Shown here: positions 12,381 through 62,956 of the stretch, piece after piece
How the letters are laid out: every line of letters starts with the position of its first letter
Position numbering within the stretch: the stretch's first letter is position 1
DNA from: Steroidobacteraceae bacterium
GTDB taxonomy: Bacteria; Pseudomonadota; Gammaproteobacteria; Steroidobacterales; Steroidobacteraceae
Direction of reading: 5' to 3'
NCBI GenBank assembly: GCA_050185195.1
Contig: JBFWZQ010000014.1
Span: 3,002 to 67,001, forward strand
DNA length: 64,000 bases
Made by a program: the position numbers and the translations under genes
Notes under the pieces: model-generated
The model's database searches: none
What the model saw: the letters and a program-made list of their open reading frames with translations, nothing else
Told to the model about the DNA's origin: nothing

Positions 12381-12737
12381 TCACGGCTGGGGAATGAAGA
12401 TTGCGTAGATCTTGGTGCAATCCTCGAGAACCGCCCACGTACCGGCAAAACCCGCCGGAACCACGAACGCGTCGCCGGGACCGAAGTTCATGCGCGCGCC
12501 CGCCTCGCTCACGAGCTCGACCCGGCCGGCCGTCAGCACGCATAACTCGCACTCTGTGTAGCGCACGCGCCACAGGCCGCGCGTACTGGACCAGTGGCCG
12601 ACGTGGAACCGTTCGCTGGCATCGGAGAAGGCGTTCCAGGCGTGCTGCACGGGATCGCCATCGATCAGGCGATCGGCCGCCGGGCGGGACGCTTCGCCCG
12701 CCCCCTGTATCGTCACCGGTATGATTTCGGTACCCAT
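12381..12737 (-). CDS. Small single-domain cupin protein (DUF861/cupin_3-like)
   Basis: C-terminal 118 codons of ORF 12381..13667 (MGTEIIPVTIQ...). Strings ECELCVLTAGRVELV...GPGDAFVVPAGFAGTW. The ATG shares 1 nt with the upstream stop (TGATG at 12735-12739). Confidence 0.6.
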   Translation of the reverse strand: MGTEIIPVTIQGAGEASRPAADRLIDGDPVQHAWNAFSDASERFHVGHWSSTRGLWRVRYTECELCVLTAGRVELVSEAGARMNFGPGDAFVVPAGFAGTWAVLEDCTKIYAIFIPQP

Positions 12738-14101
12738 CAGACATTGATACGCCGACCGGCGTCCTCCTGCATCTTCAGCATGAAGGCGCGCACCGCCGGC
12801 AGCGCATCCTCCGCTTTCAGCAAACGCTGCTCGACGAGCACCTGCGCCATGTCGGCGAGCGAGCGGCGGCCATCGACCAGCGACATCATGAAGGCATGGA
12901 TGCGCGTCGCCCGCGCATGCGCCTGCAGGTCGGCGGTGAGCGGCACCGGCCGCTTCGTATCGACGACCCAGTCGGGCGGGCCGCGGGTGGCCGGCGGCGT
13001 GACCGATCCGACCTTGCGTGCCGTCCAGGCCACCGTCGACTCGATGCGCGCATGGCGGCTCGCGGGCGACTGCATGTAAGGCAGCGCCGCCTCGCGCAGC
13101 GCGGGCCGCGAGAACCCCGCGCCCTGCACGATCTCGACGGCTTCCTCGAGGCTGAACTGCTGCACGCGCTGCGTGCTCATGAACGCGAACGCGACGGACC
13201 CGAGGTTGAGCCATCGCCCCCCTTGCGCAATGAGCGGGTTGATCCGCGCGGCCAGGGCCGGGAACGGCTCTTCCACGATGTCGATGAACCAGGGCGTGAC
13301 CACCGCGTCGAACGCGCCCGGCTGGAAAGGCGCACACATCGCATCGGCCGCGACGAGCTGCAGCCGCTCGTCCGCGGCGGCGGGCGCCGCGAGCCGGCGC
13401 AGCACGGCGTGATCCGCCGCGCCGCGCGGCGCGAGCGGGAACTCGTACAACTCGAGCGGGCGCCCGGCATACATCTCCCGGGCGACCGCGAGCAGCAGCG
13501 GGTTCAGGTCCATCGCCACCGTGAGCGCCGGGGCATGGCGGCGATGCAGGTCGTAGGCGAGGCGCCCGGCGCCCGCGCCGAGCACGAGCACCCGCGCCCC
13601 GGCGAGCGATTCCCCGCCGGCGGCATCGAGCAGGTCGAGCGACGCGGCGTTCTCGGCCTCGCCCCACGCCCAGTCCCGGTGGATGTTGGCGTAATAGTTG
13701 GTGAGCCCCTGGGACACCGGCAGGCGGGCGCGCAACGCGCGCAGCGTGTCCCGGTCGGCGGCGCCCAGGTGCACCTGCAGGGGCTCGAGCAGTTGCGTTA
13801 CCCGCAATCCGTGGTCCTCGAGCGCATCGGCAAGCCGCGCCAGCCGTTCACGGGTGGTCGGCAACAGATCGGGTGCAGCCAGGGCCGCACGCACGCCGTC
13901 CGCATCGGCCCGCAATTCCGCCAGCATCAGCGTGAGGCGTGCCCGCCATTCGCCGGCGGCCCCGCGCGGGTCGCGAAACAGCCAGGCCGCCCCGCCGAGG
14001 ACGGGGAAGCCCGCGCTGCATTGGGTGCAGATGTATCCTGCGCGATCGGCCCGCAGGCTGCCGCGCTCGCATCCCGGGCACCTCAGTACATCCACGAGCA
14101 T
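12737..14101 (-). CDS. Trm112-like zinc ribbon + class I SAM-dependent methyltransferase (N2227-like core) + uncharacterised C-terminal region
   Basis: N-terminus LRCPGCERGSL...YICTQCSAGFPVLGGAAWL (CxxC...CxxC ribbon). SAM motif VLVLGAGAGRLAYDL. FDAVVTPWFIDIVE...GGRWLNLGS resembles the FFIDT...GG.WIN.GP pattern of N2227/carnosine N-methyltransferase-type enzymes. The last ~100 aa have no family I recognise. Confidence 0.6.
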   Translation of the reverse strand: MLVDVLRCPGCERGSLRADRAGYICTQCSAGFPVLGGAAWLFRDPRGAAGEWRARLTLMLAELRADADGVRAALAAPDLLPTTRERLARLADALEDHGLRVTQLLEPLQVHLGAADRDTLRALRARLPVSQGLTNYYANIHRDWAWGEAENAASLDLLDAAGGESLAGARVLVLGAGAGRLAYDLHRRHAPALTVAMDLNPLLLAVAREMYAGRPLELYEFPLAPRGAADHAVLRRLAAPAAADERLQLVAADAMCAPFQPGAFDAVVTPWFIDIVEEPFPALAARINPLIAQGGRWLNLGSVAFAFMSTQRVQQFSLEEAVEIVQGAGFSRPALREAALPYMQSPASRHARIESTVAWTARKVGSVTPPATRGPPDWVVDTKRPVPLTADLQAHARATRIHAFMMSLVDGRRSLADMAQVLVEQRLLKAEDALPAVRAFMLKMQEDAGRRINV

Positions 14102-14134
14102 ACAACTTCACTCCACTGCTGTTACTATCTTGCC

Positions 14135-14920
14135 ATGGCTAGAAAAGCACGCCCGAAGGCCAACGGCCTCGCCCTGCACCATCGCCTGTACATGATGCTG
14201 CAGCAACAACTCACCGACGGCACCATCCCCCCTGGTGGCGCGCTGCCGAGCGAGCCCGACCTCGCCCGTGAAACCCGCCTGTCGCGCACGACCGTGCGCC
14301 GCGCGCTCGCCCGGCTCGCCGCCGAAGGCATGATCGAGCGCCGCCACGGCAGCGGCACCTACGCGACCATGCAGGGCACGGCCAAGGCCCGCACCGAGGC
14401 CACCACCGACGCCGGTGCCTTGCTGAGCGACCTGCAGGCGATGTCCCGCACGACCGTCGCCCGGGTATTGCAACACGCCGTCATCGCGACCCCGCCGCGC
14501 ATCCTCGCGGCCTGTCCGGAACTCGGCCCGCGCGTGCTGCTGCTACAGCGCGCCCGCACCCATCGTGGCAAGCCGCTCGCCGTCATCAGCCACTACATTC
14601 CCGAGCGCCACGCGGCGCGCTTTGCCAGGGCGCAGCTGAAGAACCTGCCGACCACCGTGATCTTCGAGAAGGCGCGCCTCGTGCCTTCCGTCGGCAGCCA
14701 ACAGATCACCGCGATCGCGGCCGACCACGTGCTGTCGCGCGAGCTCGGCGTGAACATCGGCGCGCCGGTCCTCTCGATCCGCCGCACCGTGCGCGATGCG
14801 AAGGGCACGCTGCTCGAATACCACGAAGTGTTCTACGACCCCGACTCCATCATCGTGCAGATGGACGTGCAGCGGGACAAGGGCGGCAAGGGCGGCGTGC
14901 GCTGGCGCCCGGTGCGCTGA
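14135..14920 (+). CDS. GntR-family transcriptional regulator (HutC/UTRA subfamily)
   Basis: Last 261 codons of ORF 12896..14920, starting at ATG 14135. wHTH string LPSEPDLARETRLSRTTVRRALARLAAEGMIERRHGSGTYA. Confidence 0.8.
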   Translation: MARKARPKANGLALHHRLYMMLQQQLTDGTIPPGGALPSEPDLARETRLSRTTVRRALARLAAEGMIERRHGSGTYATMQGTAKARTEATTDAGALLSDLQAMSRTTVARVLQHAVIATPPRILAACPELGPRVLLLQRARTHRGKPLAVISHYIPERHAARFARAQLKNLPTTVIFEKARLVPSVGSQQITAIAADHVLSRELGVNIGAPVLSIRRTVRDAKGTLLEYHEVFYDPDSIIVQMDVQRDKGGKGGVRWRPVR

Positions 14921-14953
14921 TTCGTCGGCGTCGCGCCCGGTGACGGTAATCCC

Positions 14954-16354
14954 GTGACACTTGCCGCACGCCCGACCACGCCCACCTCGTGCGCCGACCT
15001 GCTCGCCGACGCCGCAAGCCGGGCAGCGCGCTACCTCGACTCACTCGGCACCCGGCCGGTCGCACCGCCGCCCGCCGCCGTGGCGCGGCTCGATGAGCTC
15101 GACGTCCCGATGCCCGCCGCACCGACCGATGCGGCGAGCGTCCTGGCGCGCCTCGACGACATCGTCGGCCCGGCGACGATGGCGATGGCGGGTCCGCGAT
15201 TCTTTGGCTTCGTGATCGGCAGCGCCTTGCCGGCGACGGTGGCCGCGAACTGGCTGGCGACGGCCTGGGACCAGAACGCGGCCTTGTCGACGGCCACGCC
15301 GGGCGTCTCGCGCCTCGAGGCGGTGGCCCTCGCATGGCTGAACGAACTGCTGGGCCTGCCGGCCTCGGCGCAGGGCGCGTTCGTCACTGGCGCCACGATG
15401 GCGAACTTCACCGCCCTCGCCGCGGCACGCCATCGTGTACTCGAGCAGGCGGGCTGGTCGGTCGAAGCCGACGGCCTGTTCGGCGCACCGCCGATCACGG
15501 TCATCGTGGGCGAAGAGGCCCATCCGACGTTGATCAAGTCGCTCGGCCTCCTGGGCCTCGGCCGCAAGCGCGTCGTGCGGGTGCCCGTCGACAGCCAGGG
15601 TCGCATGCGCCCCGATCGCCTGCCGCGCATCGCGGGGCCCACGATCCTGTGCCTGCAGGCGGGCAACCTGAACACCGGCGCTTTCGACCCAATTGCGGAA
15701 TTGTGTGCCGCCGCCCATGCGTCCGGCGCGTGGTGCCACGTCGATGGCGCGTTCGGCCTCTGGGCACGCGCGTCCGGCCATCTGGCTCCACTCGCGGCGG
15801 GCATCGAGCAGGCAGACTCATGGGCCACCGACGCGCACAAGTGGCTCAATGTCCCGTATGACTGCGGCATCGCCTTCGTGCGCGAGCCGGGCATCCTGCC
15901 GGCGGCAATGGCGGTCTCGGCCGAGTACCTGCCCGCCGGCAGTGGCGCGCGCAATCCCGCGGACTTCACGCCCGAGTTGTCCCGTCGCGCGCGCGGCGTC
16001 GAAGTGTGGGCGGCGCTCGCGGCGCTCGGGCGCAGCGGACTCGCGGAGCTGCTCGAACGGAACTGTCGCAGCGCGCGCCGCTTCGCCGCGGGCCTTGCGG
16101 CGGCAGGCCACGAAATCCTGAACGAAGTCGTGTTGAATCAGGTGCTGGTCTCGTTCGGCGCAGCCGACGTCACCGAACGCGTCGTCGAGGCCGTGCAGGC
16201 CGACGGCACGTGCTGGTGCGGGCGCACCGTCTGGCAGGGCCGAACGGCGCTGCGCATCAGCGTCTGCTCGTGGGCCACCACCGCCGCGGACGTGGAGATG
16301 AGCCTCGCGGCGATCCTGCGTGCCGCGGAGCAGGTCGCGGCGCAAGCGCACTGA
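14954..16354 (+). CDS. PLP-dependent group II decarboxylase family protein (substrate unknown)
   Basis: ORF 14954..16354 (GTG start). Strings GATMANFTALAAAR and SWATDAHKWLNVPYDCG (PLP lysine in D-x-HK). Confidence 0.75.
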   Translation: MTLAARPTTPTSCADLLADAASRAARYLDSLGTRPVAPPPAAVARLDELDVPMPAAPTDAASVLARLDDIVGPATMAMAGPRFFGFVIGSALPATVAANWLATAWDQNAALSTATPGVSRLEAVALAWLNELLGLPASAQGAFVTGATMANFTALAAARHRVLEQAGWSVEADGLFGAPPITVIVGEEAHPTLIKSLGLLGLGRKRVVRVPVDSQGRMRPDRLPRIAGPTILCLQAGNLNTGAFDPIAELCAAAHASGAWCHVDGAFGLWARASGHLAPLAAGIEQADSWATDAHKWLNVPYDCGIAFVREPGILPAAMAVSAEYLPAGSGARNPADFTPELSRRARGVEVWAALAALGRSGLAELLERNCRSARRFAAGLAAAGHEILNEVVLNQVLVSFGAADVTERVVEAVQADGTCWCGRTVWQGRTALRISVCSWATTAADVEMSLAAILRAAEQVAAQAH

Positions 16355-16372: not shown

Positions 16373-17632
16373 TCAGGCCGCGCACCAGTCCCGATCGAGG
16401 CGCCGCGACGCCGCGAAGAAGAACGCGGCGCTCACGAAGTAGAAGCCGGTGGCGATGACGATCGCGTAACGCAGGGCATCCTGGCCGAAGTGCGGTGCGA
16501 GCTGGTCCGACAGCGCGCCGACGAACAGCGTGCCGCCGCCGATGCCGATCAGGTTGATCATGAAGAGGAACACCGCCGACGCCGTCGCGCGCATCTGCGG
16601 GACGACGAGGTGCTGCAGGGTCGCATAGACGGGCCCGGTCCAGCTCGCGTTGAGCGTCATCGGCACGCTGAACAGCACGCACGCCGCGAGCGTGGAAGGC
16701 ACGAGCACGCCCGCCACGAGGAACGGCACGATCGCGAGCAGCATCACCCCCGGCACGAGCGCATAGGCCGCCTTGCGCCGCGCGCCGAGCCGATCGGCTG
16801 CCCAGCCACCGAGCCAGATCCCCGCAATGCCGAAGGCCATCGTACCGAGGCCGACGAACCAGGCGGTCTGCGCGAGGGTGAGGCCGTGGCTGCGGATGAA
16901 GAATGACGGCGTCCAGAAGAGCAGCCCATAGCCGACGATCGACGAACTCGAGGCGCCGAGGGTGAGCAGCAGGAACGACGGCTTGCCCGCAAGGACGCGC
17001 AGCGCATCGGGGAACGAGCCGTGGATGGCGGGTGACGGGCCGGCGCGGAGCGCATCGAGGGCGCCGCGGATCGGCTCGCGCACCGTGCAGCGAAAGAGCG
17101 GCGCCAGCAGCAGGCCGCCCGCGCCCACCGCGAGGAACGCGACCCGCCAGTCGATCGCGCTCGCCACGAGGCCGCCGAGCAGCGTGCCGAGGCCGCTGCC
17201 GATCGGCACGCCGAACGAGAACACTGCGAGCGCGCGGGCCCGCTGCCGCGGGGGGAAATAGTCGCTGATGAGCGAAAAGGCCGGCGCCACCCCGCCTGCC
17301 TCGCCGACCCCGACGCCGACCCGCGCCAGGAACAGTTGCGCGAACGACTGCGCCTGGCCGCAGAGCGCCGTGAAGGCGCTCCAGGTCGCGAGTGCACCGG
17401 TCATGATCCAGGTGCGGCTGCCACGATCGGCGAGCCGCGCGATCGGGATGCCGAGCAACGTATAAAAGAGGGCGAACGCGGCGCCGCTCATCAGGCCGAG
17501 CTGGGTGTCGGAGAGCGCCAGGTCGCGTTTCAGTGGCTCCGCGAGGATGCCGACGATCACACGGTCGATGAAATTGAACGTGTAGACGACAACGAGCAGC
17601 GCAAGGACGTAGGCGCGATAGGCGGCACTCAT
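16373..17632 (-). CDS. MFS transporter
   Basis: ORF 16373..17689, about 12 predicted TM segments. MFS loop motif GIPIARLADRGSR. Start is uncertain (17632, 17671 or 17689); 17632 avoids overlap with the divergent gene. Confidence 0.8.
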   Translation of the reverse strand: MSAAYRAYVLALLVVVYTFNFIDRVIVGILAEPLKRDLALSDTQLGLMSGAAFALFYTLLGIPIARLADRGSRTWIMTGALATWSAFTALCGQAQSFAQLFLARVGVGVGEAGGVAPAFSLISDYFPPRQRARALAVFSFGVPIGSGLGTLLGGLVASAIDWRVAFLAVGAGGLLLAPLFRCTVREPIRGALDALRAGPSPAIHGSFPDALRVLAGKPSFLLLTLGASSSSIVGYGLLFWTPSFFIRSHGLTLAQTAWFVGLGTMAFGIAGIWLGGWAADRLGARRKAAYALVPGVMLLAIVPFLVAGVLVPSTLAACVLFSVPMTLNASWTGPVYATLQHLVVPQMRATASAVFLFMINLIGIGGGTLFVGALSDQLAPHFGQDALRYAIVIATGFYFVSAAFFFAASRRLDRDWCAA

Positions 17633-17669
17633 CGGCCCGATGATCGCATATGCGTACAATTGCCGTGCC

Positions 17670-18425
17670 ATGAGGACCGTCACCGCCACCCGCTATGTCA
17701 CGCCCCTGCGCGAAGGCGGCTCGCTGCCCGCGATCGTCGAAGCCGACGACGACGGGCTCTACGTGCTGAAATTCCGGGGCGCGGGCCAGGGCGCGCAGGC
17801 GCTCGTCGCCGAACTGATCGCCGGCGAGATCGCGCGCGCCGCCGGCCTGCCCGTGCCGGAAATCGTGCTGGTGCAGCTCGACGCGGCCCTCGCCCGCACC
17901 GAGCCCGACCCCGAGATCCAGGACCTCATCAAGGCGAGCGTGGGGCTCAACCTCGCCCTCGACTACCTGCCCGGCTCCATCACCTTCGACCCCGTCGCCG
18001 AACGGGTCACGGGCGAACTCGCCTCGGGCATCGTCTGGTTCGACGCGTTCGTCATGAACGTCGATCGCACGGCGCGCAATGCCAATCTCCTCATGTGGCA
18101 CGGCCAGCCCTGGCTCATCGACCACGGCGCATCGCTGTACTTCCACCATGGCTGGGACGGCAGCCCCGAACGCAGCGGCGACCCGTTCACGCGCATCCGC
18201 GATCACGTGCTGTTGCCGCTGGCCGATGCCCTGCCCTCGGCGGATGCGCGCCTGGGCGGGCGCCTGACGCGCGAGATACTCGCGCAGGCCGTCGCGCATG
18301 TGCCGGGCGAGTGGTTGCCGGACGAGTCGCGACGGACCGACTATGTCGAATTCCTGGCGCACCGCCTGCAGCGGCGGCAGCTGTTCGTCGAGGAGGCCCT
18401 GCGTGCGCGATCGCAGCTCGTATGA
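17670..18425 (+). CDS. HipA-like (PI3/4-kinase fold) kinase-domain protein without the HipA N-terminal domain
   Basis: ORF 17640..18425 trimmed to MRTVTATRYVTPL. Catalytic-loop-like NVDRTARNANLLMW and Mg-binding-like LIDHGASLYFHH. Family assignment is from memory of HipA C-terminal motifs. Confidence 0.55.
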   Translation: MRTVTATRYVTPLREGGSLPAIVEADDDGLYVLKFRGAGQGAQALVAELIAGEIARAAGLPVPEIVLVQLDAALARTEPDPEIQDLIKASVGLNLALDYLPGSITFDPVAERVTGELASGIVWFDAFVMNVDRTARNANLLMWHGQPWLIDHGASLYFHHGWDGSPERSGDPFTRIRDHVLLPLADALPSADARLGGRLTREILAQAVAHVPGEWLPDESRRTDYVEFLAHRLQRRQLFVEEALRARSQLV

Positions 18426-18795
18426 CTACGCCGTGATCCGCGTGGTGCCCCGCGTCGAACGCGGGGAGTTCATCAATGCCGGCGTGATCGTGCTGTGCAG
18501 TGCGCGCGACTACCTCGAGGCGCGCATCGATCTCGACGAGGCCCGGCTCGCGGCACTGGCGCCCGCGGTCGATATCGCGGCGGTGCGCCGCCACCTCGAC
18601 GGCATGGTCGCCATCTGCCGCGGCGGCGAGGCTGCGGGACCGATCGGCCGCCTCACGCTGCGCGAACGCTTCGACTGGCTGGTCGCACCGCGCAGCACGA
18701 TCATCCAGGTTTCGGCGGTGCACACCGGGCGCTGCGACGACCCGGCGCGAGTCGTCGATCGCCTGCTGGGTACGATGGTGAGGCCCACTCCATGA
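18403..18795 (+). CDS. DUF3037-like protein
   Basis: GTG at 18403 inside ORF 18298..18795, overlapping the upstream gene by 23 nt. N-terminus YDYAVIRVVPRVERGEFINAGVIVL matches my recollection of the DUF3037 signature. Confidence 0.5.
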   Translation: MRDRSSYDYAVIRVVPRVERGEFINAGVIVLCSARDYLEARIDLDEARLAALAPAVDIAAVRRHLDGMVAICRGGEAAGPIGRLTLRERFDWLVAPRSTIIQVSAVHTGRCDDPARVVDRLLGTMVRPTP

Positions 18796-19313
18796 CGAAT
18801 GCCATCACGATCCGGCGCGCCACGATCGGCGACGCCTTCACGCTCGCCGAGATCGGCGGCGCCACGTTCACCGATACCTTCGGCCACATGTATCCGGCCG
18901 CCGACCTGGCCGATTTCCTGCGCACGGCACATGCGCCCGAGGCCTGGAGCCGGCGCCTGCAGGATCCCCACATCGCCGTCTGGCTCGTCGAGGCGGGCAG
19001 CGGCACCGTGGCCGGCTACGCCTCGGCCGGCCCGTGCAAGTTGCCCGTGCCCGACCTGGAGTCGAACGCCGGCGAACTCTTCCAGCTGTACGTACTGCGC
19101 CATTTCCGCGGCGGCCAGCTCGGCTCGCGCCTGCTCGAGACCGCGCTCGCGTGGCTCGAGTCGCGCGGCTTCGATCCGCTCTACCTCGGCGTCTGGAGCG
19201 GCAACGAAGGGGCCCAGCGCCTCTATGGGCGCTTCGGGTTCACGCGCTGCGGCGAGTATGAGTTCCCGGTCGGCACGCAGCGCGACCACGAATTCATCCT
19301 GCGACGCGCATGA
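18792..19313 (+). CDS. GNAT-family N-acetyltransferase
   Basis: Last 173 codons of ORF 18495..19313. The ATG at 18792 overlaps the upstream stop (ATGA). Acetyl-CoA motif LYVLRHFRGGQLGSRLL. Confidence 0.8.
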   Translation: MTNAITIRRATIGDAFTLAEIGGATFTDTFGHMYPAADLADFLRTAHAPEAWSRRLQDPHIAVWLVEAGSGTVAGYASAGPCKLPVPDLESNAGELFQLYVLRHFRGGQLGSRLLETALAWLESRGFDPLYLGVWSGNEGAQRLYGRFGFTRCGEYEFPVGTQRDHEFILRRA

Positions 19314-20458
19314 GGGGCCCGAACGTCACGCCGTTCCATGCGGGCGAGATCGGCACGCGCGGCGCCGCACGCATGCGCGCGGGCCTGCCGTTCATCGGGA
19401 TGCATTACGGCCAGCCCTCGGCGGGCGCACCGCCCGCCGCCCTCGCCGCCGCGCACCGGGTGCTCGATCGCGACGCACTCGGTTACACGGAACTCGTCGA
19501 ACTGCGCGAGAAGATCGTCGCTTACTACGCCGCCAACCACGGCGTCGGGGTCGAACCCGAACGCGTGCTCCTCACCGCAGGCGCGAGCGCCGGACTCGTC
19601 GCCGCCTATGCCGCGATGTTTCGGCCCGGCGACCGGGTCGCGATGCTGCGCCCCGGTTATCCGGCCTATCGCAACACGCTCACCGCCCTGCGCCTCGAAC
19701 CCGTCGAGATCGACTGCGGCCCGGAACAGGGGTTTCATCCGACCCCCGCGCAGCTCGAGGCCCTCACGCCCGCACCGCAGGGCTTCGTCGTCGCAAGCCC
19801 CGCCAATCCCACCGGCGCCATGCTCGACGGGCAACAACTCGGCGCCCTGCTCGAGACCTGTCGCGCCCGCCACATCCGGGTGATCTCCGACGAGATCTAC
19901 CACGGCATCAGCTTCGGCCGGCGCGCGGTGAGCGCGCTCGAGATCGACCCGCGCGCGGTCGTGATCAACAGTTACTCGAAGCTCTATCGCATGCCGGGCT
20001 GGCGGCTCGGCTGGATGATCGTGCCGGCCGACTGGGCCGCGCAGGTCCACGCCTACCTCATCAACATGTTCCTGACGCCCTCCACGCTGGCGCAGCATGC
20101 TGCGCTCGCGGCGATGGACGAGCACGAGGACCTCGAGCGCTGGGTGCGCATCTATGAGCGCAATCGCGCGCGGCTCATCGAGGGGCTCGCCGCGATCGGC
20201 ATCGCAGGCATCGTGCCGCCCGACGGGGCGTTCTATCTATATGCGGACATCGGGCACCTGACCCGGGACAGCATGCAGTTTTGCCTGCGCGCCGTGGATG
20301 AGTGCGGCGTGGGCCTCGCGCCCGGCGTCGATTTCGACCCGGTGGGCGGTCATCGATTCGTGCGTTTTTCCTTCGCGGTGAATCCGGACGAAATCGAGCA
20401 GGCGCTCGAGCGCCTCGCGGCCTGGCTGCCGCGCTATCGGGACGGCGCGTCCGCGTAG
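19310..20458 (+). CDS. Class I/II (aspartate-aminotransferase fold) PLP-dependent aminotransferase
   Basis: ORF 19310..20458. ATGA overlap with the GNAT gene. Motifs SPANPTG, NSYSKLYRMPGWRLGW (PLP lysine) and VRFSF. Confidence 0.8.
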   Translation: MRGPNVTPFHAGEIGTRGAARMRAGLPFIGMHYGQPSAGAPPAALAAAHRVLDRDALGYTELVELREKIVAYYAANHGVGVEPERVLLTAGASAGLVAAYAAMFRPGDRVAMLRPGYPAYRNTLTALRLEPVEIDCGPEQGFHPTPAQLEALTPAPQGFVVASPANPTGAMLDGQQLGALLETCRARHIRVISDEIYHGISFGRRAVSALEIDPRAVVINSYSKLYRMPGWRLGWMIVPADWAAQVHAYLINMFLTPSTLAQHAALAAMDEHEDLERWVRIYERNRARLIEGLAAIGIAGIVPPDGAFYLYADIGHLTRDSMQFCLRAVDECGVGLAPGVDFDPVGGHRFVRFSFAVNPDEIEQALERLAAWLPRYRDGASA

Positions 20459-21879
20459 GCAAGGATGCGCCGCGCGAGCGCGTCGTAGTCGCCATCGAAG
20501 TGATGGCCCCCCTCGAGTTCCGCGACCTCCACGCCCGGCCGGCGCACGGCGGGACAGGCCGAATCCTTCTCGTCGGCGCCGTAGAGGCACAGCACGCGCG
20601 CCGCGGCGCCCATGGCCGCGACTTCGGGCACGGTGGGCAGGCCGCCGCCGTCCGCGCCGGGTATCCAGCTCGAAAGATGAAACTCGAAGCTCGCGGAGCT
20701 GCTCAGGCCGAGCAGGCTGACGGTTTGCACGCGTTCGCGGGTTTCCCGTGGCAGGCGGTTGTAGAGGAACGGCATGACGTCGGCGCCGAAGGAGTAGCCG
20801 ATGAGCAGCACCTTGGCGCGTTGCCAGCGCTCGCCGTAGGCACGCACGATGCGGTCGAGATCGGCGGCCGCCTCCCCGGGCGTGCGCGCGTGCCAGAAGT
20901 ATTTCAACGAGCTCATCGCCACGACCGGAATGCCGCGTGCGGCGAGTGCCGCCGCGACATCCTGGTCGAGGCCGGTCCAGCCGCCATCCCCCGTGAGCAG
21001 CACCGCGAAGCGCAGCCGGTCGTCCGCGCTGGCGGCCTGCGTGGCCGCGGGCTGGGCGGGAACCTCGATCAGTGGCAGGTCGTGGACTTGCGGCGGCGAC
21101 GGAGGCGGCCGCACGGCATCCGCCGCGAGCGAGCGCTGCGCCGTGCGAAACTGCGGCAGCCAGTTGCGCTCGACGCCGAAGCCGTGGCCGACCCGGGGCA
21201 ACCACACGAGTTCGCCACGGTTCGTTGCCGCCACGAACTCGCGCGTGCCCTGCGGATTGCAGACCTGGTCGGCGTCGCCCTGCATCACGATCCAGCGCGT
21301 GCGGTTCGTGGCCGAGGGGCGGTAGACGAGGCCTTTCGGTTGCGCCGCCGTGCCCTGCATCGTGTACTCGAGCCCGCTGCCGCGGCACGGCCGCCGCACG
21401 AGATCGAGGTCGGGGCAGAATCCGAGGCTCAGCACGCCCGCAAAGGTACCGGGTGGTGCTTGCACCATCACGGCGTACACGAGCGTTGCGCCCGAGGAAT
21501 ACCCGGCGAGCACGGGCAGGTGATACTGCTCGAGTTTCAGGCGCCGCTGCAGGGCATGCGACAGTTCCTCGAAATCCGCGCCGTAGTAGCGGCACTCGTC
21601 GCCCGGTGCGTTGATCGCCGCGCGATAGGCACGCACGTCGATGCCGGCGACGATCAGGCCTTCCTCCACCATGTGCTTCGCCATGCCGACGACACCGAGA
21701 TGCCAGCCGCCGTCGCCCGAAACGAACAACACGACGCCCGCGGGCTTCGAGTCGGGCAGGTAGACGGTCACCTTGCCGAAGCGGCCCATGTCGAAGCTCT
21801 GCTCCGTGACGGAGGGCGTCGCCCACGCTGGCACGCAGCAGCCCAGGGCGGCGAGGCCACACCACATCCTGATCGTCAT
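20434..21879 (-). CDS. acvB: AcvB/VirJ-family lysyl-phosphatidylglycerol hydrolase (periplasmic, two alpha/beta-hydrolase-like halves)
   Basis: C-terminal 481 codons of ORF 20434..22389. Signal peptide MTIRMWCGLAALGCCVPAWA. Two nucleophile elbows, LAGYSSGATL and LIGYSFGADV. ATGA overlap with the mprF stop. Confidence 0.75.
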   Translation of the reverse strand: MTIRMWCGLAALGCCVPAWATPSVTEQSFDMGRFGKVTVYLPDSKPAGVVLFVSGDGGWHLGVVGMAKHMVEEGLIVAGIDVRAYRAAINAPGDECRYYGADFEELSHALQRRLKLEQYHLPVLAGYSSGATLVYAVMVQAPPGTFAGVLSLGFCPDLDLVRRPCRGSGLEYTMQGTAAQPKGLVYRPSATNRTRWIVMQGDADQVCNPQGTREFVAATNRGELVWLPRVGHGFGVERNWLPQFRTAQRSLAADAVRPPPSPPQVHDLPLIEVPAQPAATQAASADDRLRFAVLLTGDGGWTGLDQDVAAALAARGIPVVAMSSLKYFWHARTPGEAAADLDRIVRAYGERWQRAKVLLIGYSFGADVMPFLYNRLPRETRERVQTVSLLGLSSSASFEFHLSSWIPGADGGGLPTVPEVAAMGAAARVLCLYGADEKDSACPAVRRPGVEVAELEGGHHFDGDYDALARRILAYADAPSR

Positions 21880-24482
21880 TTGGTCACCAGCTCCTTCAGC
21901 CCGCCGGAGATCAGCGTGGACACGTCGTACAGCGCCCGCGCGAGCTGCCACCCGCCCGGCGAGGCGAGATAGCGCGGCTCCCACACCGGCGTGAATTTCT
22001 CCTTGTAGCGACGCAGGCCCTCGAAGTTGTAGAACGATTCGCCGTGGCGGTAGAGGAAGCCCCCCATGCGATGCCACAGCGGCGCCAGCGCGCGCGACTC
22101 GAGGCCCGAGAGCGGCGCCATGCCGAGGTTGAACCAGCGGTAACCCTGCGCCCGGCCCCACAGCATCAGCTCGACGAGCAGGTAGTCCATCGCGCCGGCC
22201 GGCGCATCGCGGCCGAACCGCATCAGGTCGATCGACAGCTCTTCGCGCGAAGCAGTCGGCCACAGGTTCGCGAACGCGACGACGTGGCCCTCGAGCCGCA
22301 CGATCGCCGTCGCGAACTGGCGCACGTAGGGTTCCGAGAACGCCCCGACCGAGAAGCCCTTCTCGGCGGTGGCCTTGTCCTCGAGCCACGCGTCCGAGAT
22401 CGCGCGCAGGCGCGTAAGCAGCCGCTCATCTCCCGGCGGCGCGACCTCGAACGTGGCGCCCGCGCGCTCGGCACGCCGGCGGGCCTGGCGCAGTTCGGCG
22501 CGCGCGCTGCCCTCGATGCCGAAGTCCGCGAGCGGGATGCGCGCCTCCTCGCCCAGCTTGACGAGCGAGAGGCCGAGGTCCACGTACAGCGGCAGGCACG
22601 CGGGGCCCACCTGGTAGAACACGGTGCGGCCGCCCCGCCGATCGACGAGCTCGCGAAACGCCCAGACGAGCTCCTGGCGCTGGGACGGGGCGCCGACGGG
22701 ATCGCCGAGCGCGATCCAGCTGTGGCCCGACACCTGGTACATCAGGAAGGCGTCCCCGTCGCCGTGGAACAGCACGCGCTTGTCGCCGGCGAGCACCGCG
22801 TTCGCGAGGCTCGCGTCGGCGTGCGCGAGCGCCACCCCGATGCGCGCGGCATCCGGCGCCTGCGGCACGTGCGGCTCGGCCGGCGCCGGCCGCAGCAGGT
22901 TCGTCGCGACGACGGCCGCGAGCACGACGACCACGACGAGCGAGGCGCGCAGCATGCGCGGGGCGTCACCGTGCATGGCGAACGTCCACCACAGTTCATT
23001 CGAGTACGGCACGTGGCGATTGGCGAGGAAACCGATCCACACCGACAGCACGACGATGATGCCGACGCTCGCGATCCAGCCCGGCGTGAAGCGCTGGCTC
23101 ATGATCGAGGCGGGTCGATAGAAAGCGGCCGCCGACAGCAGCGAGACGAGCAGCACGATCACGAGGTAGGACGCCTCCTCGAAATCGAAGCCCTTGAGGA
23201 GCGATGCCACGATGCCGGCGACGAGCAACCACACCGTCAGGTGCCAGGCGGCACGCAGGCGGCGAAACAGGCCGCGCGCCAGCACCAGCAGGCCGACGCC
23301 GATCACGCTGCCGGCCAGGTGCGACACCTCGAGGAGCGGCAGCGGCACGACGCGGCGAATCTCGCGGATGCGTCCGTCGAGCGCCGGCGTCGCGCCCGAG
23401 ACGAGCAGCACGGCGCCAGCCACGAACACGAGGACACCGATCAGTTGCGGCGCGATCGGCGAGAGCAGCGGCGTGACCCAGCCGCCCGCCGCCCGCCGCA
23501 GGTGCGCGAGGCGCGAGCGCTGCACGTACAACTCGTGCAGGAGCAGGGCAACTGCGGCGCAGGCGAGCGGCGCGAGATAGTAGAGCCCGCGCCACGCGAG
23601 CAGCGCGCCGAGGAGCTGCGGCGCCGGCAGTTTCGGCAGCGCGAGCAGCAGGATCGACTCGAACACGCCGAGGCCGCCCGGCACCTGGCTCACGATGCCG
23701 CCGACGACGGCGATCGCGTAGATGCCCGCGAAGGTCGGAAAGTCCACCCCGGTCGACGCTGGCAACAGCACCCAGAGCACGGCGCCCGAGGCCGTCAGGT
23801 CCGCGACGCCGACGGCGAGCTGTGCGCTGGCGAGGCGTGCCCCCGGCGGTCGTATCTCCCAGGAGCCGAGCGCAAGCGGCCTGCGGGCGAGCGACGACCA
23901 GGCGAAATACCCCGCGACGAGCCCGAGGAGCACGACGCCGAACAACTGCGACCAGACATGCCCCAGGTGCAGGGCCGTCGTCCCGGGCACGGCGTACATA
24001 GCCGCAACACCGCCCAGCACCGCGAGGCCTATCGCGGTGGTCAACGCGCAGAACGACGCGATGGTGGCCACGTCGAGGGCGGTGAGTCCCTGCGTCGAAT
24101 AGATGCGATAGCGGACCGCAGTGCCGGTGAAGGCCGCGAGGCTGAAATTGTGGCCGAACGCATAGGCGATGAAGGAGGTCAGCGCGACGCGTGGATACGG
24201 CACCGGCTTGCCGACGTAGTGCACGCCGAGCGTGTCCTGCAGCGTGAGCAGGAAATAGCTCGCGGCGGTGAGCGCCGCGGCCGTCGCGAGCGCCGGCGCG
24301 GCGATCCCGCGCAGTTCCACCATGACATCGCGCAGGTGGTAGCGCCCGAGCGCGTGGTGCAGGACCAGGATGACGAGCGCAAAAGCGAACACGGAGACCG
24401 CCGGCGCGAGCCACCTGCGCCATGCGGCCGTCGGATCGACTGCGGACGACATGATGTACGAGGGTAAATCACTGCGCGCCAT
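21876..24482 (-). CDS. mprF: Bifunctional lysylphosphatidylglycerol flippase/synthetase MprF
   Basis: 868-aa ORF. About 14 TM N-terminal region plus a C-terminal aminoacyl-PG synthase domain (...DYLLVELMLWGRAQGYRWFNLGMAPLSG...). Alternative ATG at 24452. Confidence 0.8.
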   Translation of the reverse strand: MARSDLPSYIMSSAVDPTAAWRRWLAPAVSVFAFALVILVLHHALGRYHLRDVMVELRGIAAPALATAAALTAASYFLLTLQDTLGVHYVGKPVPYPRVALTSFIAYAFGHNFSLAAFTGTAVRYRIYSTQGLTALDVATIASFCALTTAIGLAVLGGVAAMYAVPGTTALHLGHVWSQLFGVVLLGLVAGYFAWSSLARRPLALGSWEIRPPGARLASAQLAVGVADLTASGAVLWVLLPASTGVDFPTFAGIYAIAVVGGIVSQVPGGLGVFESILLLALPKLPAPQLLGALLAWRGLYYLAPLACAAVALLLHELYVQRSRLAHLRRAAGGWVTPLLSPIAPQLIGVLVFVAGAVLLVSGATPALDGRIREIRRVVPLPLLEVSHLAGSVIGVGLLVLARGLFRRLRAAWHLTVWLLVAGIVASLLKGFDFEEASYLVIVLLVSLLSAAAFYRPASIMSQRFTPGWIASVGIIVVLSVWIGFLANRHVPYSNELWWTFAMHGDAPRMLRASLVVVVVLAAVVATNLLRPAPAEPHVPQAPDAARIGVALAHADASLANAVLAGDKRVLFHGDGDAFLMYQVSGHSWIALGDPVGAPSQRQELVWAFRELVDRRGGRTVFYQVGPACLPLYVDLGLSLVKLGEEARIPLADFGIEGSARAELRQARRRAERAGATFEVAPPGDERLLTRLRAISDAWLEDKATAEKGFSVGAFSEPYVRQFATAIVRLEGHVVAFANLWPTASREELSIDLMRFGRDAPAGAMDYLLVELMLWGRAQGYRWFNLGMAPLSGLESRALAPLWHRMGGFLYRHGESFYNFEGLRRYKEKFTPVWEPRYLASPGGWQLARALYDVSTLISGGLKELVTK

Positions 24483-45701: not shown

Positions 45702-47132
45702 ATGCGCTACTTCCCGGTCTTCCTCGACCTGCAGGACCGCGACGTCCTCGTCGTCGGCGGCGGCACGGTGGCCCTGCGCAAGATCGAGACGCTGCGCTCG
45801 GCCGGTGCGCGCGTCACGGTCATTGCGGCGACCATTCACGAAGACCTGCAGCGCATCGCGGCGCAGGGCGCAATCCGGCTGGTCCAGCGCCGCTTCGAGG
45901 CCGCCGATATCGCTGGCCCCCACCTCCCGCGGCCGTGGCTGATCGTGGCGGCAACAGACGAACCCGCGGTCAACGCGACGACGGCGCGCGCCGCGCAAGC
46001 GGCCGGCATCGTGTGCAACGTCGTCGACGACCGCGAACTGTCGAGCGCGCTGATGCCCGCCATCATCGACCGCTCACCCGTGCAGATCGCTGTCTCGACA
46101 GGTGGCGCCTCGCCCGTGCTCGCGCGTCTCATCCGCGAACGCCTCGAGACACTCCTCGACGAGTCGCTCGGCCCGCTCGCGCGGTTCGCCGAACGCTGGC
46201 GCGCGAGCGCACGCAAGGTGCTCGCGAGTGCGGGTGCGCGGCGCCACTTCTTTTCGTGGCTTCTGACCGGGCCGGCCGCGAACGCCATCCAAGCCCGGCG
46301 CCAGGCTGATGCAGATCGAATCGCCACGCGCGAACTGGCGCGGCGCCAGCGTCTCACCGATAGCGCCGCGGCCGATCAGGGCGCCACCGGCCACGTGACG
46401 CTCGTCGGCGCAGGCCCCGGTGACCCCGGGCTGCTCACGCTCAAGGGACTGCGCGCACTGCAGGAAGCCGACGTCGTCATCCACGACCGCCTCGCGTCCG
46501 CCGAAGTGCTCGACCTCGCACGCCGCGACGCGGAGCGTATCGACGTCGGCAAACGCCCGGGTGCAGGCACGACACAGGAGGTCATCAACGCACGGATCGT
46601 CGAACATGCGCACCGCGGGCAGCGCGTGGTGCGCCTGAAGGGCGGCGACCCCTTCATCTTCGGCCGCGGCGGCGAAGAGATCGACACCCTGCGCGCGGCC
46701 GGCATTCCCTTCGATGTGGTGCCGGGCATCACCGCCGCCATCGCCGCGGGCGCCGCGGCCGCGATCCCGCTGACCGACCGGCGACATGTACACGCCGTGC
46801 GCCTGATCACGGGCAACGATCCCGCGGTCCTCGACGCGTTCGACTTCTCCGACGTCGCCGCCGGCCGCGAGACACTGGCGGTCTACATGGGCGTCGCGCA
46901 ACTGCCGGCGTTGCGCGCGCGCCTGCTGCGTGCGGGCGTTGCGCCGGATCTACCCGTCGCGCTGGTTGGGAATGCGAGCGGCGCGGGGCAGCGGGTCGTT
47001 GCGGCTACGGTGGAAAAGCTCGCATCCGCTGCCCGTTCACACGACGTTACGTCGCCTGCAATCTTGCTGGTGGGGACCGTTACGGCATCGGCTCGCGGTG
47101 GATCGGAGACCCACGTCTGCGTCGCAGTGTGA
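45702..47132 (+). CDS. cysG: Siroheme synthase (precorrin-2 dehydrogenase/sirohydrochlorin ferrochelatase + uroporphyrinogen-III C-methyltransferase)
   Basis: ORF 45651..47132 trimmed to MRYFPVFLDL. N-terminal NAD motif VVGGGTVALRKI; SUMT motifs LVGAGPGDPGLLTLKG and RLKGGDPFIFGRGGEE. Confidence 0.9.
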   Translation: MRYFPVFLDLQDRDVLVVGGGTVALRKIETLRSAGARVTVIAATIHEDLQRIAAQGAIRLVQRRFEAADIAGPHLPRPWLIVAATDEPAVNATTARAAQAAGIVCNVVDDRELSSALMPAIIDRSPVQIAVSTGGASPVLARLIRERLETLLDESLGPLARFAERWRASARKVLASAGARRHFFSWLLTGPAANAIQARRQADADRIATRELARRQRLTDSAAADQGATGHVTLVGAGPGDPGLLTLKGLRALQEADVVIHDRLASAEVLDLARRDAERIDVGKRPGAGTTQEVINARIVEHAHRGQRVVRLKGGDPFIFGRGGEEIDTLRAAGIPFDVVPGITAAIAAGAAAAIPLTDRRHVHAVRLITGNDPAVLDAFDFSDVAAGRETLAVYMGVAQLPALRARLLRAGVAPDLPVALVGNASGAGQRVVAATVEKLASAARSHDVTSPAILLVGTVTASARGGSETHVCVAV

Positions 47133-47644
47133 CAGGAAGATCGTCGAGTTGCCCGAACTGCTCGGTGAATCCCTGTGTACTTTCGGAGGCGATGGCGCCG
47201 TCCGGGCTTTCGTCATTGCCCCAGGAGAGGCGTGAATGTGCGGTCGCCTCGCGGTACTTGCCGAAGAACGCGATGGGCTCCGGGTTCCCGGCGAACACCC
47301 GTCGATACCCGCCCAGGACGCGAACGTCCATCTCGCATGAAAGCATGGCCAGGCCAGTTGCTTTCGGCACCCACCAACGCCTGAACAGCTCCGGCCACGA
47401 GCTCACGCCCGGACTTCCGCTCTGTCGTCGTGTCGTTCTGCATGGGGTAGGCTCGGTCGGGTTCTGAGCCATCCAGCAGCGCGCTGAGATGATCGTGCGA
47501 GGCATTCATGCGCGTATTCCTGATCGCTGCCCTCACGTTCGCCGGCAACCCCTTGACACGGTAGACCCGGCGCTGGAGCTCGCGCAGGCGGGGCAGTTCC
47601 TCGCACTCGTCGTCAATAACGAGGCAGGAACACACCGGCGGCAA
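47080..47644 (-). pseudogene. Possible frameshifted or decayed ORF of unknown family at the tail of the minus-strand operon
   Basis: Two overlapping minus-strand ORFs (47213..47644 and 47080..47505) each look protein-like over only half their length: ...RVYRVKGLPANVRAAIRNTRMNASHDHLSALLDG... and then ...WWVPKATGLAMLSCEMDVRVLGGYRRVFAGNPEPIAFFGKYREATAHSRLSWGNDESPDG... This is consistent with one gene broken near 47400. No family recognised. Confidence 0.25.
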
Positions 47645-47666
47645 ACGCGGCCACTGTCATGCCAAT

Positions 47667-48974
47667 CTAAGCGCGGACGATCGATCGAACGTCGACTACA
47701 TACATCTGCCTTTGGTGCTCGTGCACCGAGTCGATGCACACTTCATCGCCAGTCCGGCTCCAGCGGGGGTGCAGGTCGCAGCGGTTCACCTTGCCGAGCC
47801 TGGGGTCGGTGTAGAAACGACCGATGTCGTGTCGCCGCGCGGTGAGCGTGTCGAACAGGATCAGCAGGCGATGGTCGGTCTCGTCCGGATACGTATCCGA
47901 GAGAATCCAGCGCTTGTCAGGCGAATAGGTCATGTGCCCGTTCTCCGTGAGGCACTCGCGGCCGATGACCTCGACCTTGTCGCTGCGGTCGGTGTACAGG
48001 TGGTAGTGCGCTTCGTGCGCATGCGGCCCCCAGATCAACACGTGGTTGTCGTCACGCCAGGTGGGATGCGAGAGCTGATAAATCGACTTCTCGTAGTCGA
48101 AGATGCCCGCCTCCGTTCCAGCCGCAGCCGGGAGCGGCGCGAGGGGATGATCGCCGCATTCGAGCAGGGTGAGCTCGCTCCCGTCTGGGTTGACCGTGAA
48201 CAGGCGATGCAGCCAGCGCGTCTCATCGTCGAAGCACTCCGTCCAGCGATGCAGGAAGAGAAAGCGCTTCGAGCCCGGCGCAATTTCCAGATGCGTAACC
48301 CAGTGAAACGCGCGCTCCATCGAGGCGACCGGCTGAAACTCCCGCAGCTTGCGCAGGTCGACGATCAGTTCATGCACACCGGTCGCGATATCCATTCGCC
48401 GGATGCCTTCGTTCGACGGCGCCGGGTCGAGTGGAGCGTGAGCCGTATGTGGGAAATAGCCGATGGTCGGGTGAGCGAGCTGGAGCCGGTCGTAGTCGAT
48501 GCATAGCGCATATTCGCCGTTCGGCGCGACGACATAGACGGGCAGCGGCAGCGTTCGGCGCTCGCCGCTTTCCAGATCGGCCAACGTCGAGCCGAAATCG
48601 GGATAGGCGCCACCGGCAGCGAACGAACGGGTATTGAAGATCACGCTGGACCGCGTGTTCTCCAGCCATTGCAGCTGGCAGCCCATCTGAAAATTCCACG
48701 TCGTGGTTTCACCGAACGCCCGAAATGCCCCGCCCCGATCCAGGTCGAACACACCCACTTCGGCCGCGAAATGGATACCGAGCTGCCCCTGCATCGCATC
48801 GACCCGATGGGCAAGAAGCCGCCGCCCATCTGCGCTCCAGACCGGCTTGTTGTAATAGCCGAAGAAATGATGGGCGCTACCGTCGCCCAGTCGCACGACG
48901 GGACACTCCATCCACTGCGCCGGGGCGGCGACGGTGGCTGCGCTGTTCTGCTCCTGCATCTTGAACCTCATCAT
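47667..48974 (-). CDS. Cytoplasmic beta-propeller protein, TolB-like / PL22 oligogalacturonate-lyase-like
   Basis: 435-aa ORF with no signal peptide. HHFFGYYNKPVWSADGRRLL near the N-terminus and CDLHPRWSRTGDEVCIDSVHEHQRQMYVVDV at the C-terminus resemble the blade pattern remembered from PL22/TolB-type propellers. Confidence 0.5.
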   Translation of the reverse strand: MMRFKMQEQNSAATVAAPAQWMECPVVRLGDGSAHHFFGYYNKPVWSADGRRLLAHRVDAMQGQLGIHFAAEVGVFDLDRGGAFRAFGETTTWNFQMGCQLQWLENTRSSVIFNTRSFAAGGAYPDFGSTLADLESGERRTLPLPVYVVAPNGEYALCIDYDRLQLAHPTIGYFPHTAHAPLDPAPSNEGIRRMDIATGVHELIVDLRKLREFQPVASMERAFHWVTHLEIAPGSKRFLFLHRWTECFDDETRWLHRLFTVNPDGSELTLLECGDHPLAPLPAAAGTEAGIFDYEKSIYQLSHPTWRDDNHVLIWGPHAHEAHYHLYTDRSDKVEVIGRECLTENGHMTYSPDKRWILSDTYPDETDHRLLILFDTLTARRHDIGRFYTDPRLGKVNRCDLHPRWSRTGDEVCIDSVHEHQRQMYVVDVRSIVRA

Positions 48975-50467: not shown

Positions 50468-50481
50468 GGGTTGTCCTTCAC

Positions 50482-51216
50482 TCAATGGCTGATGATCTTC
50501 GAAAGAAAACGTTGCGCACGCTCCGAGCATGCGCTTGCGGGGCCGAAGAACCGCTCGCTCGCGCAATCATCGATGATCCGTCCGGCGTCCATGAAGATGA
50601 CCCGGTCCGAAACCTTGCGCGCGAATCCCATCTCGTGCGTCACGCATATCATCGTCATGCCGTCGCGGGCCAACTCGGTCATGACATCGAGCACTTCATT
50701 GACCATTTCCGGGTCCAGCGAGGACGTGGGCTCATCGAACAGCATATACGCAGGATCCATGCACAAGGCGCGTGCGATTGCCACGCGCTGCTGCTGGCCA
50801 CCGGAAAGCTGCCCGGGATGCTTCGTTGCGAACTTCCCCAGGCCGACCCGCTCCAGGTATCGCATGGCGCGCGCGTGCGCCTCCTCAGGCTTGCGCTTGA
50901 GCACCTTGACTTGCGCGAAGACCAGGTTGCGCAGAACCGTCATGTGCGGGAACAACTCAAAGTGCTGAAAGACCATGCCGACGCGCGCACGGATCGCCGG
51001 CAGCAATTTCGCCGGCCCCGGCATGGCCAGGTCGTCGATACGGATTCTCCCCTGCTGCATCGGTTCGAGCCCGTTGATGCATTTGATGAGTGTCGATTTC
51101 CCGGAGCCCGAAGGTCCGCAAACGACGACGACTTCGCCAGTCGCCACGTGCGTGGTGCAGTCGTAGAGAACCTGCGTAGATCCATACCACTTGGAGACGT
51201 TCTCTATGCTGATCAT
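50482..51216 (-). CDS. Polar amino acid ABC transporter ATP-binding protein (GltL/GlnQ-like)
   Basis: Walker A GPSGSGKST; signature LSGGQQQRVAIARAL; Walker B MLFDEPTSSLD. Confidence 0.9.
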   Translation of the reverse strand: MISIENVSKWYGSTQVLYDCTTHVATGEVVVVCGPSGSGKSTLIKCINGLEPMQQGRIRIDDLAMPGPAKLLPAIRARVGMVFQHFELFPHMTVLRNLVFAQVKVLKRKPEEAHARAMRYLERVGLGKFATKHPGQLSGGQQQRVAIARALCMDPAYMLFDEPTSSLDPEMVNEVLDVMTELARDGMTMICVTHEMGFARKVSDRVIFMDAGRIIDDCASERFFGPASACSERAQRFLSKIISH

Positions 51217-52609: not shown

Positions 52610-52610
52610 T

Positions 52611-53540: not shown

Positions 53541-53575
53541 CGCCTGCAATCGTACGCCAAGTCCGCGCAAAGACG

Positions 53576-56410: not shown

Positions 56411-56485
56411 ATCCAGCCCCCTCACTTGATCTCTGGTTGCTCGTGCGTGTATCCCGGATGCGCGATCCGCGGACGTGATGGCGAA

Positions 56486-61643: not shown

Positions 61644-61666
61644 TCGCGATGACTGGAGGATCCCAC

Positions 61667-62930: not shown

Positions 62931-62956
62931 GCACGGCATCAACCACCGAGTACACC

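Follow-up and report, generated by a model that had tools for sequence, protein, structure and literature searches.

Four genes that overlap head to tail and encode a HipA-like kinase, a DUF3037 protein, a GNAT acetyltransferase and a pyridoxal 5'-phosphate (PLP)-dependent aminotransferase raise the question of whether their products work as one system and, if not, which of them belong together and to what end. The genes lie at positions 17670-20458 of a 64,000-nucleotide (nt) stretch of Steroidobacteraceae DNA (assembly GCA_050185195.1, contig JBFWZQ010000014.1, positions 3,002 to 67,001 of the forward strand), hereafter the window, and an initial annotation made from the letters alone had taken all four as one candidate uncharacterized system. 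The conserved unit is an autonomous two-gene pair, consisting of the kinase and the DUF3037 protein, and the four-gene arrangement is local gene order. As judged by sequence comparison, the pair shows domain-by-domain homology to the kinase toxin and antitoxin of HipAD, DS-6 and PDC-M66, and by analogy we lean towards the view that it is a translationally coupled kinase-antagonist module working like HipAD, in a short form that has long resided in the chromosome.

The conserved unit is a kinase-DUF3037 pair

The distribution of the pair was surveyed by scanning a DUF3037 alignment over one genome per species (185,579 species), which matched at least 590 genomes, and 80 loci were kept, from Gamma-, Beta- and Alphaproteobacteria, Acidobacteriota, Gemmatimonadota, Nitrospirota, Myxococcota, Cyanobacteria, Rhodothermales and others. 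The kinase gene was found directly upstream of the DUF3037 gene in 79/79 loci having upstream DNA (tblastn with the window proteins), and the couple, which the initial annotation had given as conserved, is indeed so. The GNAT and aminotransferase genes, by contrast, follow the pair only in L001, L002 and the JGI contig L081, which are the nearest relatives and form one small clade with the window in the tree, and they do not accompany it in the other 77/80 genome loci, contrary to the proposal of a single four-gene system. Upon all-against-all clustering of every open reading frame (ORF) within 6 kb, no further gene family was present in more than 7/80 loci, and the nearest neighbors are diverse, with 102 Pfam families represented downstream and 77 upstream, the commonest being the DeaD helicase (5/71 loci), with Aminotran_1_2 as nearest downstream neighbor in 2/71. 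Among the nearest-neighbor Pfam families listed there is no integrase, restriction or known defense family, and the pair is surrounded by ordinary chromosomal genes. Neither the ORF clustering nor these Pfam tallies revealed a third conserved component, and since the kinase adjoins DUF3037 throughout and no other family recurs, it is the pair that constitutes the conserved unit. The ATGA junctions further downstream (18792-18795 between DUF3037 and GNAT, 19310-19313 between GNAT and aminotransferase) are uninformative alone, because an identical junction lies between the mprF-like and virJ genes elsewhere in the window (21876-21879); stop/start overlaps in high-G+C genomes are, as a caution, poor evidence for genes forming one system.

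The overlap between the kinase and DUF3037 genes amounts to 23 nt in 44/69 loci, likewise in Bacteroides finegoldii, and to 11-26 nt in 66/69. A Shine-Dalgarno (SD)-like GGAGG core precedes the DUF3037 start in 69/70 loci from many phyla, and this start is a GTG six codons before a conserved Tyr in 55/70. Because the SD-like core and the overlap length are kept across loci, the overlap is, on the evidence of sequence, more than chance, and the pattern indicates that kinase and DUF3037 are translated in a coupled way, with the ribosome-binding site inside the kinase gene. Loci with similar kinases also tend to have similar DUF3037 proteins, the pairwise identities being correlated with r = 0.70. 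Near the C terminus of the kinase, a near-invariant F-x-E-E-A motif (residues 239-243) is encoded by the same bases as the GGAGG of DUF3037, so that part of its conservation may reflect a nucleotide-level constraint.

At the level of domains, the kinase matches Pfam HipA_2 (PF20613; E 6.8e-20, 71.8 bits with a cut-off of 27, profile positions 7-225/240) and its partner matches DUF3037 over the entire profile (PF11236; E 3.4e-43, 147 bits with a cut-off of 22.6, positions 1-118/118). The DUF3037 assignment made at the outset was thus confirmed by hidden Markov model, whereas the HipA_C assignment was not, as HipA_2 was matched instead and the Pfam search of the kinase returned neither HipA_C nor HipA_N at E <= 0.01; the remark that the kinase lacks the HipA N-terminal subdomain agrees with its 251 amino acids (aa). 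HipA_2 and DUF3037 are also the families matched by DS-6A and DS-6B, respectively, and PADLOC holds the pair as candidate PDC-M66, with PDC-M66A matching the window kinase over its full length (E 1.8e-22) and PDC-M66B matching the window DUF3037 protein at positions 3-63/281 only (E 9e-8). Identity to DS-6A is 25% over the whole length of the kinase, D132 of the window aligning with D139 of DS-6A, and the DUF3037 protein shares 18% identity with the N-terminal half of DS-6B. When alignments of the short and the HipD-family DUF3037 proteins were compared by hhalign, residues 7-129 of the short form corresponded to 5-128 of HipD (probability 97.7%, E 1.3e-12), and two hydroxyl positions are common to the short and long forms, T99 and S104 aligning with S98 and S103 of HipD. 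The window kinase is nevertheless a divergent member, since the HipA_2 model gives DS-6A 258 bits as against 71.8. The same unevenness is seen across models: HipA_2 scores short-form kinases at 67-72 bits, Pfam DUF3037 gives the short form 147-150 bits versus 85 for the long form, and PDC-M66A gives short-form kinases 78-83 bits versus 53 for DS-6A, which suggests that the family has at least three sub-clades, unevenly covered by current models.

The statement that the couple has no assigned function, made in the initial annotation, is outdated for the family in view of PDC-M66, of DS-6/HipAD (PMC13092281) and of phage PhiR5_1, in which a 'HipA toxin' (249 aa) and a 'HipD antitoxin' (275 aa) are annotated directly after cI (hipA end 5690, hipD start 5687). 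Publications on the long form already cover the family, the gene couple and a toxin-antitoxin (TA) or defense function, and the short form, which is the one in the window, is abundant and distinct.

Features of the kinase and its DUF3037 partner

The AlphaFold2 model of the kinase has a predicted local distance difference test (pLDDT) score of 84, and with this model Foldseek retrieved CtkA (E 8.6e-5) and Shewanella HipA (4pu5, E 6.8e-4), as well as Fam20C, PI4KII-alpha and HipT; a profile search of the PDB yielded no sequence-level relative. Thirteen residues, namely E15, G16, G17, S18, K34, D125, N130, D132, R133, N137, N139, D151 and H152, are invariant in 76/76 kinase orthologs. By analogy, the Gly-rich loop E15-G-G-S18, K34, the catalytic loop N130-x-D132-R-x-x-R-N137 and D151-H-G can be proposed as candidate functional residues, and because the catalytic residues are invariant and the modeled fold matches CtkA, HipA and HipT, the kinase is probably catalytically active. 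The Ser in the Gly-rich loop of the window kinase may resemble the autophosphorylation site described for HipA and HipT (PMC8262856). In some records the 255-257 aa HipA_2 kinases P0129 and P0216, orthologs of the window kinase, are named 'aminotransferase class I and II', and since these proteins carry only PF20613, the name resembles a propagated annotation error.

The DUF3037 protein is modeled with higher confidence than the kinase (AlphaFold2 pLDDT 92.6), as three strands, four helices, two strands and one helix, in this order. In a Foldseek search of this model against the PDB the best E value was 2.2, and a PDB sequence-profile search gave no match. HORMA proteins, which came out as top hits, were rejected (probability 0.03, root-mean-square deviation 16 Å), and so was a HipS-like or other known fold, as the PDB holds no fold match; that the kinase search returned the HipS-HipT entry 8ezr shows that the library covers such complexes. 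A few uncharacterized phage proteins have the DUF3037 fold (best E 1.3e-4). Of the positions checked, 13 are invariant in 76/76 DUF3037 orthologs (R13, P16, E22, N25, G27, R89, F90, W92, R97, S98, Q102, H107 and G109). A Cys/His metal site composed of C32, C72, H107 and C111 was considered and is weakened, as C111 is replaced by Ser, Ala or Thr in 8/76 orthologs and C32 varies in 4/76. One protein of 337 aa, P0379, combines a short-form DUF3037 domain (residues 11-128) with a pyridoxamine 5'-phosphate oxidase (PNPOx) domain, being either a real fusion or a merged gene call, and in further extended DUF3037 proteins, among them P0309, P0261 and P0275, the C-terminal tail has no Pfam match. A link to PLP metabolism, to which this fusion and the legacy 'aminotransferase' names could point, was treated as a gene-call or annotation artifact, because PLP enzymes are not recurrent neighbors of the pair.

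Locus layout and surrounding genes

The features of the locus are collected in Table 1. When the sequence was re-read, all four ORFs and their overlaps were found as initially described, and the strings then quoted from the proteins, NVDRTARNANLL and IDHGAS for the kinase and YDYAVIRVVPRVERGEFINAGV for DUF3037, are present in the translations. The start codons are backed by homolog alignments (MRTV... for the kinase, M/V-R-D-x-x-x-Y-D-Y for DUF3037), and the window proteins have 100% identical counterparts in the database proteins P0001 and P0121.

Table 1. Features of the kinase-DUF3037 locus (positions in the window)
Feature	Position	Strand	Basis
HipA-like (HipA_2) Ser/Thr-type kinase, short, 251 aa	17670-18425	+	ORF and Pfam
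SD-like GAGGAGG in the kinase C-terminal codons (F-V-E-E-A), 6 nt 5' of the DUF3037 GTG	18390-18396	+	Sequence reading
Kinase/DUF3037 overlap, 23 nt, out of frame	18403-18425	+	GTG at 18403, kinase TGA at 18423-18425
DUF3037 protein, short form (domain only), 130 aa, GTG start	18403-18795	+	ORF and Pfam
GNAT acetyltransferase, 173 aa	18792-19313	+	ORF and Pfam Acetyltransf_1
Class I/II PLP aminotransferase, 382 aa	19310-20458	+	ORF and Pfam Aminotran_1_2

The ATG of the kinase (17670-17672, +) and a candidate ATG of the divergent MFS transporter gene on the opposite strand (17671-17669, -) share the palindrome CATG, hence there is no intergenic region between the two genes, and the gene calls of L081 agree in showing a 2-nt overlap between the kinase and divergent MFS genes. 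A -10-like hexamer, TACAAT, is located at 17655-17660 and ends 9 nt before the kinase ATG; from this proximity, the kinase mRNA may be leaderless or may have a very short leader. No sigma-70-like site was detected by a promoter scan of 17200-20700, a terminator scan of the same interval gave terminator-like sites only at chance level, and tRNA and Rfam scans of the window gave no matches.

The Pfam searches uphold the GNAT and aminotransferase calls (Acetyltransf_1, E 7e-17; Aminotran_1_2, E 9.3e-54). For the GNAT protein, the nearest NCBIfam model is PaiA-like (69.8 bits versus a cut-off of 250) and the nearest PDB entries are 4e2a, 8osp and 1tiq (PaiA), and among its PDB hits there is no GNAT named as a TA toxin. 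The suggestion that the GNAT represents a TA toxin fold therefore does not hold, as it is nearest to PaiA-type acetyltransferases, and a TacT/AtaT/KacT-type toxin is rejected, since the relatives are PaiA-like and the gene is flanked by DUF3037 and aminotransferase genes and not by a ribbon-helix-helix (RHH)/DUF1778 antitoxin. The GNAT gene is probably co-transcribed with the pair, and it is not part of the conserved module. The aminotransferase scores below the cut-offs of all specific NCBIfam models, its nearest PDB entries are 5yhv and 3h14, followed by aspartate aminotransferases, and it is thus regarded as a generic class I enzyme, both proteins being metabolic neighbors of the pair in one clade.

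Upstream of the pair, at 12737-16354, lies a set of genes with the look of amine metabolism, encoding a CARME-like methyltransferase, a cupin, a GntR/UTRA regulator and a PLP-dependent decarboxylase, the latter with weak matches to DABA-decarboxylase or PanP-like enzymes; in L081 (1-7952), a class III aminotransferase and an aldehyde dehydrogenase are found further upstream. These upstream genes may explain the GNAT and aminotransferase nearby. Downstream, on the opposite strand, follow a virJ/acvB-like hydrolase gene (20434-21879, -), whose product starts with MTIRMWCGL and resembles a signal peptide there, and an mprF-like lysyl-phosphatidylglycerol synthase gene (21876-24482, -). At their 3' ends, virJ and the convergent aminotransferase gene share 25 nt (20434-20458), and virJ is the commonest lineage-level neighbor of the kinase pair in Steroidobacteraceae-like genomes. 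The G+C content of the window is about 70%, except for a block at about 47000-64000, in which it is lower (0.60-0.66 versus about 0.70 elsewhere) and which contains a nutrient-uptake set, namely an S41 peptidase, an amino-acid ABC transporter (ATPase, permease and SBP_bac_3), a TonB-dependent receptor, an M14 carboxypeptidase and a LacI-type regulator; at the border of this block, the window scans found no tRNA or Rfam element.

Possible roles of the pair and comparison with known systems

In the Retron-Sda1 operon, deletion of the kinase abolished defense against phage Bas51 and deletion of DUF3037 was toxic, and the authors remarked on the strong association of DUF3037 with HipA (PMC12548924). 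DS-6 was validated by DefensePredictor and renamed HipAD; its kinase loses defense upon the D139A substitution of DS-6A, its partner DS-6B contains both DUF3037 and DUF1829, and AlphaFold3 predicts a contact between DS-6A and DS-6B (interface predicted template modeling score, ipTM, 0.76-0.79) and a weaker one between DS-6B and DNA (PMC13092281). HipAD is described (Brenes & Laub 2025, as cited in PMC13092281) as an anti-phage defense that is carried by E. coli prophages and pairs a HipA_2 kinase toxin with a DUF3037-containing HipD antitoxin. The TA-like reading offered by the initial annotation thereby has experimental backing in relatives, through the Retron-Sda1 deletions and DS-6A D139A (PMC12548924, PMC13092281). 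If the window pair works in the same manner, DUF3037 would bind the kinase at about 1:1 and keep it inactive, and once DUF3037 is lost or displaced, the kinase would phosphorylate a conserved protein of the cell and thereby bring about growth arrest; by analogy, this target would be a translation factor or an aminoacyl-tRNA synthetase. Because the C-terminal domain of HipD, which is predicted to contact DNA, is absent, the short form would probably do without antitoxin-mediated DNA binding and autoregulation, and it would be a long-resident, vertically inherited chromosomal module and not a mobile defense gene.

Several observations weigh against such a HipAD-like kinase-antagonist module. The experiments on the family cover long-form members only, and the short form, with at least 7900 DUF3037 clusters and at least 8000 kinase clusters at 90% identity among its relatives, keeps 58-79% identity across phyla (mean pairwise identity across loci: kinase 66%, DUF3037 63%), which is not how TA or defense genes typically behave. 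Comparison of 12 syntenic genome pairs showed kinase and DUF3037 to be conserved to about the same degree as the median flanking ortholog, the G+C content of the pair tracks that of the host genome from 0.52 to 0.72 (mean difference +0.012), and among the neighbor genes of the loci examined there are no integrase, restriction or defense genes near the pair. The short form is found in 9/72,556 plasmid records, all of them large replicons, and phages hold only 2 distant hits to it, of HipAD type. Recent horizontal transfer was rejected as an explanation for the high identity, because the G+C content follows the host and the family-level clades follow taxonomy. Lastly, DUF3037 is well folded in the model, and its invariant polar residues R13, E22, N25, R89, R97, S98, Q102 and H107 hint at ligand binding or catalysis rather than at occlusion of the kinase.

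It is therefore possible, though we consider it doubtful, that the pair is a non-toxic, housekeeping-type phospho-switch in which DUF3037 would be a substrate, activator, adaptor or small-molecule sensor and not an antitoxin, the mobile HipAD systems being derived offshoots. SpoIIAA, which is both substrate and antagonist of SpoIIAB, serves as the model for this arrangement. The very high conservation across phyla would agree with it, as would the tightness of the short-form clade (119/2280 DUF3037 representative clusters at E <= 1e-30 versus the short-form profile), the taxonomic order of the family-level clades with synteny kept between related genomes, and the ordinary chromosomal contexts; so would the many invariant polar residues of a confidently folded DUF3037, the alignment of T99 and S104 with the hydroxyls of HipD and the lack of a DNA-binding extension. 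However, the sole experiments on the family show toxin and antitoxin behavior (PMC12548924, PMC13092281), the distribution is patchy, with at least 590 of 185,579 species genomes, and coupled overlapping genes are typical of TA pairs too. In evolutionary terms, the pair would then be an ancient, vertically inherited regulatory phospho-switch of soil and gut bacteria from many phyla, with a sensor, substrate or modulator as partner, and HipAD would be the branch that gained a C-terminal domain and turned mobile, a scenario which we regard as tentative.

It is unlikely that the pair functions in abortive infection against phages in exactly the manner of HipAD/DS-6, even though the Pfam families and gene order are those of validated systems and the catalytic D132 is equivalent to D139 of DS-6A, since the C-terminal half of HipD and DS-6B is missing, as seen in the short PDC-M66B match and by hhalign, the pair is neither on a prophage nor in a defense island, and it evolves slowly and is vertically inherited. 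E. coli hipAD behaves otherwise, being found in 284/5426 complete genomes (in 282 at >=99% identity) and adjoining cI in PhiR5_1. There is very little to be expected from the reading of all four genes as one system, be it a small-molecule phosphorylation, acetylation and transamination pathway or a composite stress module: co-transcription is likely given the head-to-tail overlaps, L001, L002 and L081 have the four genes in the same arrangement, the surroundings resemble amine metabolism (GntR regulator, PLP decarboxylase and MFS upstream) and one DUF3037-PNPOx fusion exists (P0379), but 77/80 genome loci have no GNAT or aminotransferase gene within reach, Aminotran_1_2 is nearest downstream in just 2/71, the arrangement is restricted to a single small clade, ATGA junctions are common here, as between mprF and virJ, and the kinase fold matches protein and lipid kinases, with toxins as the relatives of the kinase. 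This reading is largely refuted by the co-occurrence data.

Compared with known systems, the kinase has its best structural match in CtkA, the HipA-like secreted Ser/Thr kinase of Helicobacter pylori, which is similar in size (template modeling score 0.55-0.59, E 8.6e-5) but 13-14% identical in sequence to the window kinase; CtkA is not known to have a DUF3037 partner. Canonical HipBA of E. coli K-12 and Shewanella shares the kinase fold class, with a Gly-rich loop containing Ser, a catalytic Asp/Asn loop and an Mg-binding Asp. In contrast to HipA, however, the window kinase has 251 instead of about 440 aa, lacks N-subdomain 1 and matches neither HipA_C nor HipA_N, and its partner is encoded downstream, is not a helix-turn-helix protein and is unrelated to HipB, the gene upstream being the divergent MFS transporter. 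Short core Hip kinases with downstream HipS-like antitoxins (HipG/M/I/J; HipBST) were described in a 2021 phylogeny of Hip kinases, in which DUF-named domains go unmentioned (PMC8262856). Like the window kinase, these are core-only kinases without N-subdomain 1 that have their Gly-rich loop close to the N terminus and adjoin the gene of a small putative antagonist, whereas the window kinase is shorter (251 versus 279-321 aa) and DUF3037 has no fold match to HipS or any other PDB entry.

The closest counterparts of the proposed kinase-antagonist module are HipAD, DS-6 and PDC-M66, with which it shares the Pfam families of the kinase (HipA_2) and of the N-terminal domain of the partner (DUF3037), the gene order, with the kinase first and the partner directly downstream and overlapping, and a kinase that aligns over its full length, with the catalytic Asp intact and with N-x-D-R-T and I-D-H as catalytic motifs. 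It differs from HipAD and DS-6 in that the partner has 130 aa as compared to 270-280 aa, the C-terminal half of HipD of about 150 aa (DUF1829-like and predicted to touch DNA) being absent, and in that identity is only 25% to DS-6A and 18% to DS-6B; toxicity without the partner and kinase-dependent defense were demonstrated in the long-form relatives only (PMC12548924, PMC13092281). HipAD is also prophage-borne, sporadic and fast-evolving, with only 121 relatives of HipD found and identity falling to 46% within Enterobacterales and to about 27% in sphingomonads, whereas the form in the window is chromosomal, syntenic and slow-evolving. The validation of HipA_2/DUF3037 pairs as phage-defense TA systems dates only from 2025-2026 and concerns only their long, prophage-borne form, while the window holds the far more abundant short form with its housekeeping-like conservation. 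The function of this short form would show whether the DUF3037 domain alone is enough to control the kinase, and whether a defense system arose from a resident regulatory module or the reverse, and would point to the conserved target of the kinase. The contrast between a slow chromosomal form and a mobile defense form is a real and testable lead.

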